Shown: piece after piece, positions 3,219 to 64,000 of the stretch
Numbering within the stretch: the first letter of the stretch is position 1
Layout of the letters: every line of letters starts with the position of its first letter
From: Candidatus Poribacteria bacterium
GTDB lineage: Bacteria > Poribacteria > WGA-4E > WGA-3G
NCBI GenBank assembly: GCA_965261125.1
Contig: CBDHCS010000005.1
Location: forward strand, 4,902-68,901
DNA length: 64,000 nucleotides
Direction of reading: 5' to 3'
Translations under genes and position numbers: made by a program
The notes under the pieces: model-generated
Told to the model about the DNA's origin: nothing
Databases searched by the model: none
Seen by the model: the letters and a program-made list of their open reading frames with translations, nothing else

Positions 3219-3351
3219 CAGGACTTACGCATTCCCCCCGCTTGCGGGGGGATAAAGGGGGGTAAAACCTTGAAAAGGACAAAAAATCAGGGTTAATATC
3301 CGTGAAAGGACAAAATTCTAAACAGGGATACTTGAATTTGCGTAAGTCCTG
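3219..3351. repeat. MITE-like element, family A copy 1. Terminal inverted repeats CAGGACTTACGCA ... TGCGTAAGTCCTG, with internal core CGCTTGCGGGGGGATAAAGGGGGG
   Basis: Perfect 13-bp TIRs. The same element recurs at 7677, 17150, 20231 and 28289. Confidence 0.8.
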
Positions 3352-3761: not shown

Positions 3762-6068
3762 CTAACGAATCTGCCATAGCAGGATTGTGCCGTCGTAGCT
3801 GCCGCTGACAATAGTGTTTCCATCTGGAGAAAGAGCCACAGTGTGAACACCTTCCGTATGTCCTGTGAGTGTATTTTTGTGTTCTCCAGTATGTGCGTTC
3901 CACAATCGCACCGTCTTATCATGGCTGCCAGTAGCGATCGTCTTTCCATCCGGAAAAAATACTATGGAGAAAACTACTTCTGTATGCCCACTGAGTGTCG
4001 CTATATGTTTACCTGTGCTTGCGTCCCATAACTGCACTGGAGGATTGTCGCCGGTTTCTGTAGGGTCCAGGGTTGTAAGTTCGCCCGTATTTGCGCCCCT
4101 CAAGTGCTGTGGGGCGTTCTCGCCGTAAATTCCGGTAGCGAGAGTGTTTCCATCTGGAGAAAACGCTACAGACTTGACAGCCCCCTTATGTCGTAATGTG
4201 TTTTTGTGTTCTCCAGTCCGTGCGTTCCACAATCGCACTGTCTTGTCAGCACTTGCACTGGCGATAGTTTCTCCATCCGGAGAAAATGCCACGGAATAGA
4301 TCGGACCTGTATGTCCTTTGAAAGTTGATATGTTTTTTTCTGTTTGCGTATCCCACAAACGTACCGTGTTATCGAGGCTTCCTGAAACGATCGTGTTTCC
4401 GTCTGGAGAAAATGCCACGGAATAGATCCCTTCTGTATGTCCTTTGAAAGTTGATATGTTTTTTCCTATTTGTGCGTCCCACAATTGCACTGTATTGTCA
4501 AACTTTCCACCAGTAACTATCATATTCCCATCCGGAGAAAACATTACGGAATCAACATCACCCGTGTTCCGTCCTATGAGTGTATTTTTGTTTTTTCCTG
4601 TTCGTGTGTCCCACAACTGCACTGTTCCATCATGATGACCACTAACAATGGTTTTACCGTCCGGAGATAACACTATGGAAGTGATCGACCACGTATGTCC
4701 TGGGAGGGTGTTTTTGCGTTTTCCTGTTTGTGCGTCCCACAAATGTACTGTATTGTCCCAACTCCCCGTAGCGATAGTTTTTCCGTCCGGTGAAAACACT
4801 ACAGAAGTAACAGCACCTTTATGTCCTGAGAATGTGCTTTTGTGCTTTCCTGTTTGTGCGTCCCACAACCGGGCTCTACTCCAATGCCCAGTAACGATCG
4901 TCCCTCCATCCGGTGAATACACTACGGAGCGGGCACTATCTGTGAGTCCTTTTAGTGTATTTAGTCTACTTTTGTATTCTCCACTGTTTGTGTCCCACAA
5001 ACGTACCGTGTTATCTTTACTTGTAGTAACGATCGTCCTTCCATCCGGAGAAAATGCGATAGCACGGACACTGTCTGTATGCCCAGTAAGTGTATTTTTG
5101 TTCTTTCCTGCCTGAGTATCCCACAACCGCACTGTTTTGTCCTCACTCCCAATCGCAAGAATGTTTCCATTCGGGGAAAATGCTAAAGAAACGACATTAG
5201 GAGGAAATGCTGCAGAAGTGGCATAATCTGGTGGACCTCCTGTGGATACAGCCAAATCTGTACCTCCTGTGAATATAATTTTGTGTTCTCCTGTCTGAGT
5301 ATCCCACAACCGCACTGTGTTATCTCCACTACTCAGGGTAGCGATAGTAGCACTATTAGGGGAAAATGCTATAGAAGTAACAGACGATGTATGTCCTTCG
5401 AGTGTAGCTAAGTTTGTCCCTGTCCGTGTATCCCATAGCCGGACAGTTTTGTCATAACTTGCTGTAACAATCGTTCCTCCATCCGAAGAGAATGCGATGG
5501 CACAGACACTGTCCGTATGTCCAGTAAACAAGTCAATTTCTTTTTCTTTACCGGGACGCGCGTCATAAATCCAAATTCCGATGGAACTTGCAACGGCAAG
5601 CCGAGTACCATCCGGCGAGAAAGCGACATTTCCTGTTATATCACCTTTACCGAGGCGCGCTTTTGCACCTTCGGGCAGCGCCCATTGTGTATAGTCTACT
5701 GAGTCGGATAAACTCTGATTTGATTCCTGTCCCGTGCCATTACCTCTACCGGGAGTATCAGAATTATTTCCAACTATATTTCGAATATCCGGTTTTGCAT
5801 CAATCTCCTGGACTATAGGTGCATCAATAAGTTCTACTGCCATCTCAGACTGCATGTCCAAACTATAAGGTTGCTGGAAGCGCGCTAAATTCTTACTGCC
5901 CATGCCAAGTATGAACACAATCAAAATGGCACCAGATGCAGCCAACACCCACGGCATAAAAGGATTGCTTCCAGAAGGTGCAACAGGATTAAGATGTGCA
6001 ACTTCTCTCATTATGTTTTCAGTTAAGTTTGCGGATATTTGGAAATTGCTGAGTGCCTCTCTAATCAT
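3762..6068 (-). CDS. Membrane-anchored anti-sigma factor with a large periplasmic WD40 beta-propeller domain (about 14 WD repeats)
   Basis: 768 aa. The N-terminal cytoplasmic segment is followed by a TM helix (WVLAASGAILIVFILGM) and then repeated FSPDG...WD units. It lies 14 bp downstream of an ECF sigma gene, with an AAGGAGG RBS. Confidence 0.75.
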   Translation of the reverse strand: MIREALSNFQISANLTENIMREVAHLNPVAPSGSNPFMPWVLAASGAILIVFILGMGSKNLARFQQPYSLDMQSEMAVELIDAPIVQEIDAKPDIRNIVGNNSDTPGRGNGTGQESNQSLSDSVDYTQWALPEGAKARLGKGDITGNVAFSPDGTRLAVASSIGIWIYDARPGKEKEIDLFTGHTDSVCAIAFSSDGGTIVTASYDKTVRLWDTRTGTNLATLEGHTSSVTSIAFSPNSATIATLSSGDNTVRLWDTQTGEHKIIFTGGTDLAVSTGGPPDYATSAAFPPNVVSLAFSPNGNILAIGSEDKTVRLWDTQAGKNKNTLTGHTDSVRAIAFSPDGRTIVTTSKDNTVRLWDTNSGEYKSRLNTLKGLTDSARSVVYSPDGGTIVTGHWSRARLWDAQTGKHKSTFSGHKGAVTSVVFSPDGKTIATGSWDNTVHLWDAQTGKRKNTLPGHTWSITSIVLSPDGKTIVSGHHDGTVQLWDTRTGKNKNTLIGRNTGDVDSVMFSPDGNMIVTGGKFDNTVQLWDAQIGKNISTFKGHTEGIYSVAFSPDGNTIVSGSLDNTVRLWDTQTEKNISTFKGHTGPIYSVAFSPDGETIASASADKTVRLWNARTGEHKNTLRHKGAVKSVAFSPDGNTLATGIYGENAPQHLRGANTGELTTLDPTETGDNPPVQLWDASTGKHIATLSGHTEVVFSIVFFPDGKTIATGSHDKTVRLWNAHTGEHKNTLTGHTEGVHTVALSPDGNTIVSGSYDGTILLWQIR

Positions 6069-6082
6069 CGGTTCCTCCTTCT

Positions 6083-6628
6083 TTAGTCTTGCCTTGCACG
6101 GCTGAGCCTACTCTTAATCGCACTTGACGATACACCTAAAAATCTGCTAATCTCTTCACACGTCATGTTGCCGAAGTAGTGTAGGACCATTACCGTCCGC
6201 TCACTCTCTTTTAGTTTAGAGAGCAACTTTTTGACGACTTCGCGTTGTTCATCTACCGTAACTTTTGCTTGTTCTGTAGCGACATATTGGGAATATGTCG
6301 GTTCTTCTATTATCTCAGTATCTATGTCTTCAAGCGATTCTGTCTCCAGGTGTTTTTTACGGAGCCATGCAAGGCATTGGCGCGTTGCAATTACGTATAG
6401 CCATCCAGAAAACTGATTCGGGTTTTTCAAGGTTGCCAATTTTTGATAGACCTTGAGAAAAGTATCTTGCGTAATTTCTTCAGCGATGTGAAAATCGCCT
6501 ATTTTCCGCCAAGCGAGTGCATGCACCTGTTTTTGGTATTTTTCCACCAAACTGGCAAAGGCAGTATCATCACCTGCAAGGATACTATATATCAGTTCAG
6601 CATCGTTATTTTTCATCAGATACCTCAA
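6083..6628 (-). CDS. ECF-type RNA polymerase sigma factor (sigma-70 family, regions 2 and 4)
   Basis: 181 aa. Region-2-like (DDTAFASLVEKYQKQVHALAWRKIGD) and region-4 HTH (MTCEEISRFLGVSSSAIKSRLSRAR). Confidence 0.85.
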   Translation of the reverse strand: MRYLMKNNDAELIYSILAGDDTAFASLVEKYQKQVHALAWRKIGDFHIAEEITQDTFLKVYQKLATLKNPNQFSGWLYVIATRQCLAWLRKKHLETESLEDIDTEIIEEPTYSQYVATEQAKVTVDEQREVVKKLLSKLKESERTVMVLHYFGNMTCEEISRFLGVSSSAIKSRLSRARQD

Positions 6629-11391: not shown

Positions 11392-11859
11392 CTCTCGTTT
11401 TAATAAACTTAAACAAGTTCACGCACCTCCAATTTATCAGATAACCGGGCAAAACGTCAACATAGAGTTGGATGTGTAAAGTTTTGGTTATATAATCTAA
11501 GTTGCCACATAGTAGCACAATTTGTTAGATTGTGTCTGTAAGGGCACAAACTAACAGATTGTGGGACAACTACTGTTATCCGCTATATTTCCGAAACAAG
11601 TTTATGAAAATGACCAATAACCTGAAAGTTCGCTGTATTAGGATAGGATACCATTTTTTATTATTCCCCCGCAACATCTCTGAACATCAGTGTTTCTACA
11701 AAAACTTTACACACTCCCTCTCAGGGTTATTTATAGTAAAGCCCATAATTATTTGGACACTTTTGTCCTTGTCCGCTCTCCCCCCGCTTGCGGGGGGTTG
11801 GGGGGCGGGATAAAGGAATATTTTCGTGTGTCCACTTAATTGTCGATTCTACTATAATG

Positions 11860-12250
11860 GGACACTTCTGTATCGCACCCTGTATGAAGATTAATTTATT
11901 AATTCGGTAATTTTCTATCCGTACGAGGCAAGTGTACTCCCCCGCTGGCGAGGCGGGGAATGCCTAAAGACGAATGCGCCTATGGCATTCGCCATGATTC
12001 ATACCCGGGGAATGCCAAAAGGCATTCATACCGTTGATTTCTTGATTTCTTCCTAACCTCGCCCAATTACCGAAATATTTTCTTAATCTTCATTTAGGTT
12101 GCGGACTCAGATGCACAACCTAAATGAAGATTAAGTTTTTAATTGGGTAATTATAATTTACTCCAAACCCCGGTAGGTGCGGTTTCCTAACCAATATATC
12201 TCCACGAATTACCTAATTTATTTTTTTATCTTCATATAGGTTGTGCTACA
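11860..12250. repeat. Composite family-D MITE (about 250 bp, long TIRs of the form TATGAAGATTAAtttattAATTCGGTAATT ... AATTACCGAAATATTttCTTAATCTTCATtTAGGTTG) plus extra solo TIR copies
   Basis: Internal GGAATGCC..GGCATTCC palindromes. The same architecture recurs at 24444, 37389, 43018 and 49570. Confidence 0.7.
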
Positions 12251-33029: not shown

Positions 33030-33310
33030 TCTGTAGGAGCGATCTCCGAATCGCGACAAAACGAATAATAGTCGGGAATCCAAATCAACGGTATGGATGC
33101 CTTTTGGCATTCCCCGGAGTTCCCATCTACATCTCAGATGTCCAGTTAATTGTAGAATCCATTATAATTATCTGAACCAAGATGGACAAGATTATAGGAT
33201 TTTCAGGATGAGTCCAATCCTATGCGGAGACTCCAATCCTGACCATCTTGTCCTCCCGGGGAATGCCTAAATGGCATTCCCCGTATGGTATTCTGCATTG
33301 GTTAGGAAAC
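33030..33310. repeat. Family-C partial copy followed by a divergent family-D copy
   Basis: CTGTAGGAGCGATCTCCGAATCGCGAC, then a region with GGAATGCCnnnnGGCATTCC palindromes and a terminal GGTTAGGAAACCG hairpin. Confidence 0.55.
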
Positions 33311-33394
33311 CGTACCTACCGTCGTATATAAATAATTATAGATTTTACTATAAACAAAACTGTTAACTGATCAGTTAACAAGACGTTCTGCGAT

Positions 33395-37388: not shown

Positions 37389-37583
37389 GTAGCATAACCT
37401 GTTAGGTTGTGCATATTAGTCCGCAACCTAAATGAAGATTAAGAAAATATTTCGGTAATTTGGCGAGGTTAGGAAACCTCGCCAGCGGGGGAGTACACCT
37501 GCCTCGTACAGATAGAAAATTACCGAATTTATAAATTAATCTTCATACAGGTTGCGGTACAGAAGTGTCCCATTAATTATAGG
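37389..37583. repeat. Family-D composite MITE, copy 5 (reverse orientation)
   Basis: Same modules as 11860 and 24444. The element creates an artificial 5' extension of the downstream ORF (37552). Confidence 0.7.
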
Positions 37584-37661
37584 TTTTATTATAATTTCTA
37601 CTGAGCCATTCGTGACCTCATATTTCGACAAACCTGTTACTCAAAGATTGAGGGTAACACC

Positions 37662-60214: not shown

Positions 60215-60625
60215 TTAAACTCTCCCATACTTATCGTCAAGCCGGACAATGTCTTTCTCATCAAAATGTCCGAAAGCGATTTCCAGGACCCTGTAGTTTT
60301 GAGATTCGCCGATGAGTTGATGTTTTGCACCTTGCGGAATAAAAACCGGCTCCATCGGATCGGGATGGACCACCTTATCCTCAATCCGAATACATGCACC
60401 TTCGTCAAGCGGGATCCACAGTTCACTCCGACGGTGATGATACTGATAACTTACCTGTTCACCAGCACGGATCTCCAAAATCTTGACTGTCACCGGTTGG
60501 TTCAGGACATATTGAATAAAACGTCCCCACGGTTTTTCTGTCGTCAATATCTCTGATAGCACTTTAGATGGGTCTGTTATAGGTGCAAATGCGTGTTCGG
60601 CATTTGCAATAATCTGTTTCTCCAT
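60215..60625 (-). CDS. Cupin-domain protein (type-II phosphomannose-isomerase-like cupin)
   Basis: 136 aa. YQYHHRRSELWIPLDEG cupin motif 1. Confidence 0.65.
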   Translation of the reverse strand: MEKQIIANAEHAFAPITDPSKVLSEILTTEKPWGRFIQYVLNQPVTVKILEIRAGEQVSYQYHHRRSELWIPLDEGACIRIEDKVVHPDPMEPVFIPQGAKHQLIGESQNYRVLEIAFGHFDEKDIVRLDDKYGRV

Positions 60626-61056
60626 TGGTCACCTACGCCAACAGTTTGCTATAGTTTAGCACAACTTGAATGGATAAGGCAAGCAGAAAAACGCGTGAAT
60701 CAGAGGCATTCAATTGTCACAGAATACTCTCGTGGGATGGTTTTCTAAGTCCGATATTATAAAATTTCCGCTTTGTCTGAACCAAGATTCTCATGATTGA
60801 AGATTTTGTCCCAACAGATCATTCACAGGGCGCAAAGTTTATGATGCATTGTGCTAAATCCGCAAGAGGCACCTTGATGAAAAATAATCTTGGTAATCTG
60901 CTAATCCTGAAAATCCTGGTTCAGACAATAAGATTCAGAGATTGACATTTAATCCAACCTATAGTAGAATAAATACAACGTTAAAATGATTTATATATTG
61001 CCCACGTTTTTCTATCCAGACAGGTGTTTAGCACAACGCAAAAGGAGAACAAACCG

Positions 61057-62151
61057 ATGAAAAACACGTTGTGTTTAATTTTGACAGCACTGTTGATAGC
61101 ATTCACATTTACATTTAACAGTCTTGCCCAAACCCCACAGGATGATCCACAACAGGGGGATCCACAACAAGGGGATCTCCCTGATGGCGCGGAAGTGCGG
61201 TCCGGGCCTGAGCAAGGTAGGATCAGAGATATAAAGTTTTCCCCCGATGGCACACGCCTTGCAGTGGCGAGAAGCCGCGGTATTTGGCTCTTGGATGTCC
61301 AGACAGGTGACGAACTTGTGCAATTCACAGGTTTTGCGGATTCTGCTGCTACTATTGCATTTAGCCCGGATGGCAATATGTTGGTCGGTAGTAGCATAAA
61401 GGACAATACCGTTCGTTTGTGGGATGTACACACAGGTAGGAACATCCGAGCATTCAAAGGACGCAGTAAGAAGAATTGGGTAGGGGACGTAGCGTTTAGT
61501 CCGGATGGCAAAACTATCGTAATTAGGCGTTGGAACAAAACCCTCTGTCTATTGGATCTGAACACAGGCAAAACCCTCCGAATATTCAAAAAGGATACAG
61601 AAAAGATATCACGTGTTGCGTTTAGCCCGGATGGTAGGACTATCGCAAGTAGCGGTGAGGATAAAACTGTGCGTCTGTGGGATGCACACACGGGCAAAAA
61701 CCTTCACACACTCACAGGGAATACGGAAAGGATATGGCACGTAGCATTTAGTCCGGATGGCAAAATGATAGCAAGTAAAAGTAATGATGATACTGTGCGT
61801 CTGTGGGATACGCACACCGGACAACCCCTACGCACAATATATATGTCTTCTCTTGGCTTCAACTTTGCGTTCAGTCCGGATAGCAAGATGATCGCATGTA
61901 TCGGTTTCGGTACTATCGATCTATGGGATGTGAACACGGGACAACACTTACGAAAACTCATAAAAACCTACAGACGACTAGCTTCTACACTGAATATCGG
62001 ACGCTTGATTGCGTTCAGTCCGGATGGCAGGATGATCGTAAGTGCTGGTCCATTTGAAGTCCATCTGTGGGATGCAAACACAGGACAACTCCTCCGAAAA
62101 CTCATAAGTCATCCCAAAGGCACTGATGTACGATCATTCCAAAGGAACTAA
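61057..62151 (+). CDS. Secreted WD40 beta-propeller protein (paralog 1)
   Basis: RBS AAAGGAG. Signal peptide MKNTLCLILTALLIAFTFTFNSLAQ, then about 7 FSPDG...WD blades. Confidence 0.75.
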   Translation: MKNTLCLILTALLIAFTFTFNSLAQTPQDDPQQGDPQQGDLPDGAEVRSGPEQGRIRDIKFSPDGTRLAVARSRGIWLLDVQTGDELVQFTGFADSAATIAFSPDGNMLVGSSIKDNTVRLWDVHTGRNIRAFKGRSKKNWVGDVAFSPDGKTIVIRRWNKTLCLLDLNTGKTLRIFKKDTEKISRVAFSPDGRTIASSGEDKTVRLWDAHTGKNLHTLTGNTERIWHVAFSPDGKMIASKSNDDTVRLWDTHTGQPLRTIYMSSLGFNFAFSPDSKMIACIGFGTIDLWDVNTGQHLRKLIKTYRRLASTLNIGRLIAFSPDGRMIVSAGPFEVHLWDANTGQLLRKLISHPKGTDVRSFQRN

Positions 62152-62154
62152 CCG

Positions 62155-63417
62155 ATGAAAAATAGATTGTTTTCAATTTTGACAGCACTTTTGATAATAG
62201 CATTCACATTTACATTTAATAGTCTCGCCCAAGATTCACCGCAAGAGGATATAGAGGATTTACTTGAATCAATACGAGAGAAAGCAAAGGATTTAAGTAA
62301 GGCCGAGAAAACGGGCGCGGTCAATAAACTTGTTTATTCTACCAACGATATAAGTTTTTCCCACGATGGCAAACGGCTCGCGTTGGCAGGGAACTACGGC
62401 ATTTTGATCTACGACATTCAGAGAAATCGCAAAAACGTTCAGGCAAGTTACAAACCTACCAAATTGAGAGAACATCAGAGGAGAGGGTGGCGGGTAGCGT
62501 TTAGTCCAGATGGCAAGCTAATCGCAAGTGCGAATGCTACAGGCACCCTTTACCTATGGGATGCGAAAACGGAAAAACTCCTTCGGACAATCGAAGGTGA
62601 GCCAGGATATTCACCTTTCTCGTGTATGGCATTTAGTCAGGATGGCAGGATACTCGTTACCGGAGGGAACAAGATTATCACAAGGGATCCTTGGATAAGC
62701 GAGGGCATAGTGCTTTTGTGGGATGCACAGACAGGAGAACACATCCGAACCCTAACAGGACATACGAGACATGTCGATAGTGTGGCATTTAGTCCGGACG
62801 GCATAACTATCGCTGCGGGTGACTCCGTCACTATCAGGGCAGATGGTAAAGACAGTGGAGATGCCACAGTGCGTTTATGGGATGCACGGACGGGAAAACT
62901 TCTTCGGACCTTAATGAGACATGGGGGTGAGATCAAATGCTTGGCGTTTAGTCCGGATGGAAAACTGCTCGCAAGTGGTGGGCCGTTCGACCCTGTTCGT
63001 TTATGGGATGTAAACACCGGACAACACATCAGAACACTCGCAAGTGATAGGACAAGAACTCCGAAGGATCTGGATCAAGGGAGGCCGTCGTTTGATTCGG
63101 TAGATAGCATTGCATTTAGCCCAGATGGTAGCACACTTGCAAGTTCCAGTATACTGCGGGCCCGCCTATGGGATGTAAAACGGGGACGACTCCTCCTAAA
63201 ATTCAGAGACCAAAATTCAGGCAATGGTCCTAGTGTAGTGGCGTTTAGTCCAAATGGAAAGACTATCGCAATCAGTAGAAGTTATGAACTTGAGCAAATA
63301 GTTCCCAAAAGCAATGGCGTTAAAATTACGAAAGAAATAGAACTGTGGGATGCGGAAACGGGAAAACATCTCCATAGGATCAAGTTAGAAAGGTACAGAT
63401 TCCAAATTTACCGATGA
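62155..63417 (+). CDS. Secreted WD40 beta-propeller protein (paralog 2)
   Basis: Signal peptide MKNRLFSILTALLIIAFTFTFNSLAQ is nearly identical at DNA level to paralog 1. It starts 3 bp after the paralog-1 stop. Confidence 0.75.
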   Translation: MKNRLFSILTALLIIAFTFTFNSLAQDSPQEDIEDLLESIREKAKDLSKAEKTGAVNKLVYSTNDISFSHDGKRLALAGNYGILIYDIQRNRKNVQASYKPTKLREHQRRGWRVAFSPDGKLIASANATGTLYLWDAKTEKLLRTIEGEPGYSPFSCMAFSQDGRILVTGGNKIITRDPWISEGIVLLWDAQTGEHIRTLTGHTRHVDSVAFSPDGITIAAGDSVTIRADGKDSGDATVRLWDARTGKLLRTLMRHGGEIKCLAFSPDGKLLASGGPFDPVRLWDVNTGQHIRTLASDRTRTPKDLDQGRPSFDSVDSIAFSPDGSTLASSSILRARLWDVKRGRLLLKFRDQNSGNGPSVVAFSPNGKTIAISRSYELEQIVPKSNGVKITKEIELWDAETGKHLHRIKLERYRFQIYR

Positions 63418-63512
63418 AAAACACGTTGTGTTCAATTTTGACAGCACTGTTGATAGTACTCACGTTTACATTTGATAGCCTTACCCAAACTCCGCAGGAT
63501 GATCCATAACAA
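63414..63512 (+). pseudogene. Third copy of the signal-peptide cassette, ending at a stop after 32 codons (MKNTLCSILTALLIVLTFTFDSLTQTPQDDP*)
   Basis: ATGA overlap with the paralog-2 stop, exactly as between paralogs 1 and 2. Followed by a GCGGTTTCCTAACC hairpin. Confidence 0.4.
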
Positions 63513-64000
63513 GAGCATTAAATATGTTTACACTCCCCGGTAGATGCGGTTTCCTAACCAATGCAGAATACCGGACGCTTATGCTGCCGGAGTTTTCTCC
63601 AAAATTACAGAAATGATAAATTAATCTTTGGACAGTTTTCTCTACAGAAGTGTCCCGTTAATTGTAGGTTTTTCTATAGCGGATGTATTTAGGGCGTTCA
63701 AAATAGAAATCCACGATAATTAGCGTTACGTTCCAATACCGTCAGTTTATCACAAAATTAGCTACTGTCAATCTGTTTTACAAAAATAAACTATAGAAAA
63801 AATGTTGCATGCCTGCTGCAAACGTGGTATAATTACTATAATTTGATCACATGTCCAAAACGATATTACCAGAGATACACACCTCCAGATTTGCACAGCG
63901 GGTTCTCTCGTCATGAGAGTCTGATGCAAATATGAAGGGGGTGGACGTATAAACCCAATGCGGAGTCTTGCGGCTCCAGTAAACCCAGGAGGTTATTTTT

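Follow-up and report, generated by a model that had tools for sequence, protein, structure and literature searches.

A tandem array of predicted exported WD40 propeller genes with a shared 5' segment and a probable terminal gene stump in Candidatus Poribacteria

The vlp genes of Mycoplasma hyorhinis and the vsp genes of M. bovis are clustered paralogs in which the promoter, the 5' UTR and the signal peptide are conserved and the mature parts differ. These clusters are reshuffled by recombination between the conserved 5' segments. They switch by means of a poly(A) tract within the promoter, or through inverted sites and the site-specific recombinase that acts on them; the encoded proteins carry a lipoprotein signal peptide and surface domains with internal repeats. 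Gene conversion and unequal crossing-over are also known as the cause of concerted evolution in bacterial paralogs such as tuf, the rRNA operons and the opa genes of Neisseria.

Our literature search for conserved signal peptides combined with gene conversion in bacteria returned eukaryotic cases only. In conotoxins and in the antimicrobial peptides of amphibians and mussels, the signal sequence is far more conserved than the mature part, as in the WD40 family described here. However, those genes are eukaryotic and exon-structured, with demonstrated diversifying selection on the mature peptide, whereas the WD40 family consists of bacterial genes. Kamke et al. (2014, PMC3909097) have shown that WD40 domains are highly abundant in Candidatus Poribacteria, that poribacterial repeat proteins in general frequently have signal peptides or transmembrane helices, and that many of the WD40 proteins bear a Por-type C-terminal sorting domain.

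Here, we explored a WD40 locus in a 64,000-nt stretch of DNA (the window) from a Candidatus Poribacteria genome. The locus appears to be the head of a tandem array of exported seven-bladed WD40 paralogs. The reading that we prefer, with a probability of roughly 75%, is that the array belongs to a family of tandem paralogs specific to this lineage, in which unequal crossing-over, conversion and deletion bring about an ordinary turnover, with no dedicated variation system. The features of the locus are as follows.

60774-60927, no strand assigned: inverted pair of the dispersed motif AATCNTG..ATCTTGGTTCAGACA, MITE-like, just 5' of the promoter
60942-60970, + strand: sigma-70-type promoter, TTGACA-17-TAGAAT (11/12 match)
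60977-61056, + strand: AU-rich leader of ~80 nt with GGAG at 61044-61047, conserved across array heads; predicted transcription start
61057-61131, + strand: signal-peptide cassette of gene 1, MKNTLCLILTALLIAFTFTFNSLAQ
62136-62154, + strand: junction of gene 1 and gene 2, carrying the leader 3' end AAAGGAACTAACCG with a Shine-Dalgarno-like AAGGA; alignment from -16
62155-62232, + strand: signal-peptide cassette of gene 2, MKNRLFSILTALLIIAFTFTFNSLAQ, one codon longer than that of gene 1
63414-63509, + strand: probable stump, remaining from the 5' cassette of a third unit now lost, with 31 sense codons and then TAA at 63507-63509
63537-63574, + strand: REP-like hairpin, a dispersed element with the core CGGTTTCCTAACC
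63601-63712, + strand: degenerate dispersed intergenic repeats of families D19 and D12, MITE-like (repeat matches)

Gene 1 (61057-62151, + strand, 364 aa) ends with TAA, gene 2 (62155-63417, + strand, 420 aa) ends with TGA, and the spacer between them is CCG (62152-62154). Both proteins matched the WD40 profile PF00400 (gene 1, E = 6.7e-42, 140.6 bits; gene 2, E = 6e-35, 118.6 bits; cut-off 27), and seven FSPDG-type blade motifs were found in each, which confirms the first-pass annotation in its description of two complete WD40 genes 3 bp apart. The AlphaFold2 models of the two proteins alike contain 28 strands, corresponding to seven blades, with pLDDT above 85 in most 10-residue blocks of both propellers; a helix after the signal peptide of gene 2 is a low-confidence prediction. 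The nearest PDB structures found by Foldseek were seven-bladed propellers (E down to 1e-22, target-normalised TM-score 0.82-0.88), and identity was 30-35% for the best of the bacterial and designed ones. By sequence and model, gene 1 is an exported seven-bladed WD40 propeller of type G1 and gene 2 is one of type G2, the export being predicted.

Structure prediction and the PDB fold search gave no functional clue for either protein beyond a generic WD40 propeller. In NCBIfam, genes 1 and 2 had generic propeller matches only, all of them sub-threshold, and neither matched TIGR04183, the Por C-terminal sorting domain of type IX secretion cargo. No identical protein was returned for gene 1 or gene 2 by an exact-protein look-up. 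The products are most likely periplasmic binding scaffolds, a putative role. They share the seven-bladed WD40 fold with 5yzv (Thermomonospora curvata), 2ymu (Nostoc) and WDR5; however, those three are cytoplasmic domains of larger proteins, whereas genes 1 and 2 encode stand-alone propellers behind a signal peptide.

The N-terminus, as read by eye, consists of MKN(T/R), a 16-residue core (mean Kyte-Doolittle hydropathy 2.4-2.5; 2.5 for the h-region of gene 1) and S-L-A before Q. The sole Cys of the signal peptide is residue 6 of gene 1, after N-T-L; no lipobox was seen by eye in the translations, and no Cys is present near the cleavage region. In the AlphaFold2 models, an N-terminal helix (residues 3-23 in gene 1) is followed by a disordered linker in both proteins. 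Our nhmmer analysis found exactly three cassettes in the 64-kb window, and BLAST gave no further significant match (in-window E = 4e-23 for gene 1 against gene 2 and 1.7e-34 for gene 1 against the third copy). From -16 to +75/78, 80 of the 94 aligned columns were identical between gene 1 and gene 2, with a 3-nt indel included. The first ~95 nt had been described as nearly identical and the propellers as different; the bodies are indeed divergent (52% nucleotide identity), but "nearly identical" is too strong for signal-peptide codons with 89% identity, which differ by 4 synonymous substitutions, 3 replacements and one codon indel.

The array promoter occurs only once in the 64-kb window, and its -35 box, spacer and -10 box were almost unchanged across 10 array heads of related loci, as was the leader; most heads of the family's arrays have this module. 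The arms of the inverted pair lie at 60774-60798 (- strand) and 60903-60927 (+ strand), and a third copy of the motif was found at 33169 (chance expectation 0.00). In the alignment, the proximal arm and the adjoining GATTCAGA were kept upstream of several related array heads. We rejected a structured cis-regulatory RNA (a riboswitch or similar) in the leader, because the consensus fold was weak (-1.5 kcal/mol, with an unfavourable covariation term) and Rfam gave nothing relevant for the whole window at the gathering threshold or for 60600-64000 at E <= 1. Judging from the sequence alone, the strong promoter and the unstructured leader (60942-61056) would transcribe gene 1 and gene 2 together.

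Each unit opens with a putative Sec-type signal-peptide coding segment of ~75 nt, in front of which stands the 3' end of the leader, from a few to 20 nt long. Because the units carry the leader end and the common segment, they abut (TAA-CCG-ATG) or overlap (ATGA), and adjoining units are probably translationally coupled. The junction at 62136-62154 keeps the leader 3' end, so gene 1 finishes, in its final codons and its stop, on leader-derived sequence. The ATGA overlap that had been called the same at the third copy is present between gene 2 and that copy, but the junction between gene 1 and gene 2 has the 3-nt spacer instead.

The ATG of the third copy overlaps the TGA of gene 2, and 91 of 102 nt from -4 to +98 were identical to gene 1. 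The copy noted at 63414-63512 with 32 codons is therefore real, but it ends at 63509 after 31 sense codons. Where gene 1 has CAA, the copy has its stop TAA, and similarity is gone by about +108 (~63521). A sequencing error as the origin of this stop was rejected, since similarity is lost a few bases later anyway. No WD40 similarity was found in any frame of 63500-64000, and the last 490 nt of the window contain no propeller remnant. We consider it likely that the third copy is a non-functional stump left after deletion of the unit downstream of gene 2. Truncation by repeat insertion had been offered as an alternative, and dispersed repeats do fill the site now; however, the body is absent, not displaced, within the 490 nt available. 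Because the body is missing and five other loci also have a stump of 35-77 nt behind this gene, the site is better described by the deletion of a unit that lay downstream. Of the stump, only the ATGA would still be needed, as the stop codon of gene 2.

The gap left by the deletion would since have been filled by dispersed REP-like and MITE-like repeats. The 116-nt segment at 63505-63620, which contains the hairpin, folded at -26.1 kcal/mol (z = -2.9). A blastn-short search located 7 copies of the CGGTTTCCTAACC core in the window, the others lying at 33287-33321, 12168-12195, 14483, 7628, 17124 and 37467, and the core was also present in related loci (L001, L002, L003, L008, L009 and L010). Because it recurs in the window and in six related loci, the label "REP-like" is justified, and the hairpin reported 3' of the third copy stands. 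Like REP elements, it is a short and imperfect intergenic palindrome that is dispersed in many copies per genome; it has no sequence relation to the enterobacterial REPs. The neighbouring repeat at 63601-63712 is 82% identical to 37516-37593, with further matches at 11855, 49760, 24496 and 26310, and it resembles MITEs in having long inverted arms in other copies.

Among the GTDB species representatives, the cassette pattern matched only in Candidatus Poribacteria MAGs. We found ~30 cassettes in 13 related loci with nhmmer, and wherever the ORF behind a cassette was read, it was a WD40 gene or a stump. The relatives are MAGs or metagenome contigs, and at least one is from a TARA sample. In the JGI metagenome scan, the promoter pattern had no match and the cassette pattern had 8 loci, of which the two LXNJ01 contigs (L014, L019) alone belong to the family, the others matching by chance. 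Two fragments were all that a search with the N-terminal 50 aa returned.

Orthologs of gene 1 and gene 2 in other genomes had 85-88% nucleotide identity. The ortholog of gene 1 (L008a, 87-88% in the body) lies elsewhere, at an ECF-sigma-linked locus, and at the 3' end of this gene L008 has the junction seen between genes 1 and 2. The orthologs of gene 2 (P0003-P0010) had 61-76% amino-acid identity. One lies at the syntenic site in L006, L009 and L021, and L020 is syntenic on the downstream side. Relative to L006 and L009, the flanking genes were 81-94% identical and gene 2 was 70-75% identical at the amino-acid level. A G1-type gene is absent from the syntenic site of L006 and L009, where the best match to gene 1 is the paralogous G2 ortholog (33-34%). 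The content of the arrays thus varies between related genomes, as the copy-number comparison proposed in the first-pass annotation brought out. Its suggestion of a recent duplication is contradicted by the 52% identity of the bodies and by the fact that each gene has its own ortholog elsewhere.

A stump with the ATGA overlap is present in each of the six arrays whose last gene is of the gene-2 type. Stumps equivalent to 63414-63509 were found in L006, L009, L010, L020 and L021, and L007 and L011 have an intact gene at the stump position with the same overlap. The cassettes of the stumps are 35-77 nt long, their ORFs have 10 to 40 codons, and the hydrophobic cores are degraded in some. The left breakpoints are all within the first ~165 nt of the lost unit, a clustering that is not predicted by a purely random deletion model. 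At the syntenic site, the stumps of three genomes belong to three different cassette subtypes; a single ancestral deletion fits this result only if later conversion overwrote the stumps. The DNA 3' of the stump had no similarity to what follows the stumps or terminal genes in the relatives, except for the dispersed hairpin core.

We then compared cassettes and bodies across the family. In L004, two paralogs share 114 nt at 100% identity with divergent flanks, and the tract runs past the signal peptide into the linker. Two paralogs (P0010 and P0013) have chimeric bodies, and P0007 has an internal conversion tract. Nucleotide identity between paralogs was 0.69-0.93 for the signal peptide and 0.52-0.69 for bodies of different types. 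The distances of signal peptides and bodies were uncorrelated (Mantel test, r = 0.17, p = 0.13, at the low power given by cassettes of only 75 nt). Between orthologs, the signal peptide (0.85) was not better conserved than the body (0.87-0.88), and orthologous cassettes were no more alike than paralogous ones. On the sequence comparisons, gene conversion is real at the family level, as indicated by the identity tracts, the chimeras and the uncorrelated distances.

In the window itself, identical residues of gene 1 and gene 2 have the same codon in 17 of 21 cases in the signal peptide and in 62 of 113 cases in the body (p = 0.02), and many other pairs pointed in the same direction, with synonymous sites more conserved in the cassette. 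Because the cassettes of the window differ by 11%, both between gene 1 and gene 2 and between gene 1 and the stump, any conversion here must be old. Conversion in the window is modestly supported by the codon result and by the contrast between cassette and body. Thus, the proposal of gene conversion of the 5' cassette is borne out in L004 and by the decoupling of cassette history from the bodies, but the signal in the window is old and modest.

Much of the cassette similarity in the window could be explained by purifying selection on the signal peptide alone. In its full form, this explanation states that the family needs the signal peptide or the 5' coding sequence for export or regulation, with no conversion in the window and a young stump. 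One signal peptide has been kept over many genomes and gene types, the promoter and leader are conserved as well, which suggests constraint on the whole module, and nothing is freshly homogenised, as seen in the 4 synonymous differences between gene 1 and gene 2 and the 11 of 102 nt between gene 1 and the stump. However, selection on the protein would not by itself predict the greater conservation of synonymous sites in the cassette than in the body, orthologous cassettes no closer than paralogous ones, a tract with zero differences that extends into the linker, or the retention of cassette sequence by non-coding stumps. We therefore regard selection alone as rather unlikely. The "recombination-driven variation system" of the first-pass annotation, read here as antigenic or phase variation in which cassette recombination changes the propeller that is expressed and the stump serves as partner, agrees with the conserved 5' module and divergent downstream parts, the different unit content of related genomes and the chimeric paralogs. 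However, no recombinase or invertase gene adjoins the array here or at the syntenic loci; its neighbours encode a mannose-6-P-isomerase-like protein, PGI, a histidine kinase and a sigma-54 regulator. The inverted pair lies wholly upstream of the -35 box and does not enclose the promoter, and no long simple-sequence tract that could slip is visible, the longest run in the spacer, the leader end and the first codons being five A at the start codon. The only silent element (63414-63509) carries a conserved signal peptide and no variable propeller sequence, one promoter ahead of both genes leads us to expect joint expression, and the identity of orthologs across genomes is as under vertical descent. 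We consider such a programmed system very improbable and do not uphold this claim.

For the stump, an assembly or sequencing artefact would mean that a repeat was collapsed or wrongly joined in the third copy, or that errors interrupt a full-length gene there, and frameshifted family genes do occur in low-coverage long-read contigs of relatives (L001a, L002, L004b). However, the stump ends by a substitution followed by full loss of similarity, not by an indel, no propeller sequence follows it up to 64000, and the same architecture was obtained in independent assemblies of five other genomes; an artefact is hardly credible. The stump might instead be functional, as a homology anchor for the capture or loss of units or as a short translated ORF that tunes the termination of gene 2. 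Its presence with the ATGA overlap in every gene-2-ending array would fit, as would the three subtypes at one syntenic site, as if overwritten repeatedly, and the varying locus of gene 1 among genomes, with breakpoints inside the cassette or leader. The variable lengths, the damaged cores and the unrelated downstream DNA are a pattern of neutral erosion, and one or two ancestral deletions with decay explain most of the observations; we find a function of the stump improbable. About as doubtful is the further idea that the shared 5' segment and the terminal stump form a recombinase-independent cassette exchange system. If it were true, each WD40 unit would be flanked on both sides by the same ~80-nt homology, ordinary homologous recombination could remove whole units cleanly or copy them from one of the genome's two conserved array sites to the other, and the stump would be maintained and repeatedly overwritten as the downstream anchor. 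Such an exchange would account for the stumps in six of six arrays, the mixed subtypes at the syntenic site and the presence of gene 1 at different loci.

Ordinary turnover of a tandem family, the preferred reading, would work as follows. Because all units have the common 5' segment, homologous recombination there would add, remove or swap whole units, and the segment would now and then be homogenised by gene conversion. Such recombination and conversion would explain why the copies of the segment resemble one another much more closely than the propellers do, and why their relationships depart from the propeller phylogeny. The diversity of propellers would then arise on an evolutionary time scale and not from a programmed switch. 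The locus is a concrete and well-delimited case of the way in which Poribacteria may assemble and reshuffle their large sets of WD40 proteins: recombination within the common 5' segment would duplicate, delete, convert and fuse units made of a promoter or leader end, a signal peptide and a propeller. In annotation, a recurrent type of pseudogene is to be expected, an ORF of 10-40 codons overlapping a WD40 gene at its stop codon, and the near-invariant promoter-leader module could be used as a family finder.

The array resembles the vlp and vsp clusters in its conserved 5' module and divergent mature parts. However, the switching device, lipoprotein signal and repetitive surface domains of those clusters were not found in the WD40 array. 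A new mechanism is not revealed by it. The likeness to concerted evolution lies in the bounded identity tract of L004, the chimeric paralogs, and the gain and loss of units with breakpoints in shared sequence; the difference is that the WD40 family is homogenised mainly in its short 5' module, whereas the bodies are mostly separate orthologous lineages. The WD40 proteins reported by Kamke et al. (PMC3909097) belong to the same phylum and domain family as genes 1 and 2, but the Por domain is a feature of many of theirs and not of genes 1 and 2. What is new relative to that study is the subfamily itself, with its shared promoter-leader-signal-peptide module, its tandem arrays and its terminal stumps.

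The tandem WD40 genes, gene 1 (type G1) and gene 2 (type G2), share a 5' signal-peptide segment, here called the cassette, a third copy of which follows gene 2. This much of the first-pass annotation was right, with small corrections. The main features are as follows (gene coordinates from the ORF listing of 60800-64000).

60774-60798 (minus) and 60903-60927 (plus): 25-nt motif AATCNTG..ATCTTGGTTCAGACA, present here as an inverted pair; a third copy lies at 33169-33193
60942-60970: array promoter
61057-62151, plus: gene 1, 364 aa, stop TAA
between the genes: 3-base spacer, CCG
62155-63417, plus: gene 2, 420 aa, stop TGA
63414-63509, plus: third cassette copy (the stump), a 31-codon ORF whose ATG at 63414 overlaps the TGA of gene 2; TAA at 63507-63509
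63601-63712: degenerate repeats from two further dispersed, intergenic families

Both genes match PF00400 (WD40), gene 1 with 140.6 and gene 2 with 118.6 bits (cut-off 27), and each carries seven FSPDG-type blade motifs. In AlphaFold2 models built from family alignments, each protein has a helix at its N-terminus, a disordered linker, and 28 strands that are predicted to form seven four-stranded blades. Their top structural matches were generic seven-bladed propellers, namely the designed WRAP-T, a Thermomonospora curvata WD40 domain and WDR5. Neither gene encodes any additional domain or a C-terminal sorting domain of the Por type.

We compared the three cassettes within the window. Between −16 and +75/78, a stretch that takes in the leader end AAAGGA..ACCG, genes 1 and 2 agree in 80 of 94 alignment columns (BLAST E = 4e-23), and gene 1 agrees with the third copy at 91 of 102 nt from −4 to +98 (E = 1.7e-34). 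No further significant BLAST match to the segment was present in the 64 kb, and a profile search found exactly three copies. Nucleotide identity between the propeller bodies of the two genes is just 52%. Thus the cassettes had been correctly described as alike, but the term "nearly identical" was too strong for a segment that is 89% identical. Likewise, the third copy has 31 codons rather than 32 and ends at 63509, and the reported ATGA stop/start overlap exists only at its junction with gene 2, not between genes 1 and 2.

At the position of a CAA codon in gene 1, the third copy reads TAA; its similarity is gone by about +108, and tblastn with both propellers detected no WD40 body in 63500-64000. 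In the related loci L007 and L011, an intact paralog of 377-392 aa comes after the gene-2 ortholog, again with the ATGA overlap. By comparison, in all six arrays ending in a gene-2-type gene (the window, L006, L009, L010, L020 and L021) the ATGA is followed by 35-77 nt of cassette alone. These stump ORFs have 10-40 codons, some with damaged hydrophobic cores, and the DNA downstream is unrelated. Even shorter remnants lie behind the last genes of L008 and L003, and the L008 remnant and L010 have a common breakpoint. Considering the intact paralogs and the bare cassettes together, the third copy is the leftover of a deleted unit rather than a truncated gene with a displaced body. Deletion of a unit leaves two facts unexplained. 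One is that the syntenic-site stumps are of three cassette subtypes, namely gene-1-like TPQDDP (window), P0049-like DSPPGYSPIPD (L006) and L003-like ALPFM.C (L009); the other is that no stump has its left breakpoint more than about 165 nt from the start of the unit. We consider it quite improbable that the stump is retained to serve as a downstream homology anchor by which arrays exchange units. The tally omits L001 8710-9826, L002 6773-7803 and L004 2692-3749, genes split by single frameshifts that are probably sequencing errors in low-coverage long-read contigs (2x-8x) and not pseudogenes. Another decayed array end is L001 10001-10400, a gene-1-like unit cut after 55 codons and joined to an apparent CDP-alcohol phosphatidyltransferase gene fragment; an intact gene of this kind lies downstream of the L007 array.

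The exact proteins of genes 1 and 2 are absent from the public gene index. Among GTDB species representatives, a degenerate DNA pattern of the segment matched three Candidatus Poribacteria MAGs only, and further loci were obtained from protein searches and context look-ups. Upstream synteny with L006 and L009 comprises a sigma-54 regulator, a histidine kinase, PGI and a minus-strand mannose-6-P-isomerase-like gene, followed by the WD40 array; L021 has the PGI and isomerase portion, and L020 resembles L009 and L021 on the downstream side only (beta-lactamase, NamZ, AnmK). Gene 2 is 70-75% identical in amino acids to its syntenic orthologs, whereas the adjoining housekeeping and regulatory genes reach 81-94% (L006, L009), which indicates that the propellers evolve faster than their surroundings. 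The gene maps of L006, L009 and L021 have one WD40 gene each at the syntenic site and none of the G1 type; the best match of gene 1 at the L006 and L009 site is the paralogous G2 ortholog (33-34% aa). Its own ortholog (body 87-88% nt) heads another array in the genome of L006, adjoining an ECF sigma gene and having the same 3' junction, CATTCCAAAGGAACTAAC. A different WD40 gene precedes the gene-2 ortholog in L020. Thus it is whole units that vary between arrays, and their junctions fall in the shared leader end and signal-peptide segment.

After the array, a conserved beta-lactamase-family gene and NamZ occur in L009, L020, L021 and L004, with AnmK in the first three; NamZ and AnmK are MurNAc recycling genes. 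L006 has an OmpR-type regulator there instead, and in the window the gene downstream of the array falls past position 64000. Elsewhere in the window, two minus-strand genes (3762-6068 and 6083-6628) are one for an ECF-type sigma factor and, following it, one for a 768-aa protein. This protein combines an anti-sigma-like region at its N-terminus with a single membrane span and a long WD40 domain, and belongs to a separate WD40 subfamily without the cassette; in L019 the cassette precedes a propeller whose N-terminal region resembles that subfamily.

Gene conversion of the cassette, as previously proposed, is supported at the family level. The clearest event is in L004. Two paralogs there, of unlike body type and with an unrelated gene between them, are 100% identical over 114 nt (+12 to +126; 6276-6150 and 3749-3623, minus strand), with divergent sequence on either side. 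For 13 complete genes, paralog nucleotide identity was 0.69-0.93 in the signal peptide versus 0.52-0.69 in bodies of different types. Between orthologs the values were 0.85 (signal peptide) and 0.87-0.88 (body), so the signal peptide is no better kept among them. Signal-peptide and body distances were not correlated (Mantel r = 0.17, p = 0.13), and the nearest signal peptide belonged to the nearest body in just 2 of 13 genes, the reciprocal pair of gene 1 (W1) and its ortholog L008a. Identical residues of genes 1 and 2 used the same codon at 17/21 sites in the signal peptide versus 62/113 in the body (Fisher p = 0.02). Any conversion in the window itself is old, with about 11% difference between its cassettes, and part of their likeness could be due to selection on the signal peptide. 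The propeller bodies recombine as well: among family proteins from related loci, P0010 is a chimera (first half gene-2-like, second half P0013-like), P0013 has a G2-like N-terminus and a mostly P0012-like body, and P0007 (L007 10001-11287) contains an internal tract that is 86-97% identical to P0012, its downstream neighbour, and was copied from or to it.

In 10 array heads from related loci (L001, L002, L003, L006, L007, L008 and L010; window copy with leader, 60942-61056), the promoter TTGACATTTAATCCAAC..ATAGTAGAAT hardly varies, its 17-nt spacer included, and the window promoter matches the consensus at 11 of 12 positions. The leader of about 80 nt is conserved across array heads, without an Rfam match or a conserved fold, and most heads share the upstream motif GATTCAGACAGAAC. 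The genes behind the near-invariant promoter and first leader part are merely 35-88% identical, which suggests a common regulator site or a module spread by recombination. In heads L004a and L021 the same leader end adjoins a promoter of a second type, TTGACATGTAATCAT..TATACTATAG. Of the leader, internal genes retain only the final few to 20 nt, with either a Shine-Dalgarno-like AAGGA or the ATGA overlap, and cassette-bearing ORFs with downstream sequence read were WD40 genes or stumps.

The REP-like hairpin noted behind the third copy is indeed a dispersed element. It occupies 63537-63574 within a 116-nt segment (63505-63620; −26.1 kcal/mol, z = −2.9), and its core, CGGTTTCCTAACC, recurs at 33287-33321, 12168-12195, 14483, 7628, 17124 and 37467 and in six related loci. 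No canonical intrinsic terminator was predicted on the plus strand. The inverted 25-nt pair encloses about 105 nt in the stretch that separates the isomerase-like gene from the array promoter, and it resembles a small MITE; its third copy lies near the hairpin copy at 33287-33321. Dispersed intergenic repeats are unusually plentiful, with many copies of families D10 and D12-D20 in the 64 kb (D10 at 3228-3267, 7686, 11774, 13083, 20261, 26278, 26480 and 28319). Among them are G/C-rich palindromes (CCCCCCGCTTGCGGGGGG...) and longer palindromes, about 90-140 nt in size, with arms ATGAAGATTAA...TTAATCTTCAT. The last stretch, 63840-64000, has no Rfam match. It holds one imperfect inverted repeat, with arms at 63882-63895 and 63925-63938, and its final bases are AGGAGG followed by 8 nt, which would fit a gene starting just beyond the window.

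A recombination-driven variation system and a recent duplication had also been suggested. Neither is supported. No recombinase gene flanks the array in the window or the syntenic loci; the promoter is not enclosed by the inverted pair, which sits upstream of the −35 box; the promoter spacer and first codons show no long simple-sequence tract (longest run, five A); and the sole silent piece holds the conserved part of the gene. The family instead evolves by unequal crossing-over, gene conversion and deletion within the shared 5' segment. The array is an ordinary but dynamic member of a lineage-specific family of exported WD40 propellers in operon-like arrays, and the abundance of WD40 proteins in Poribacteria has already been described (PMC3909097).
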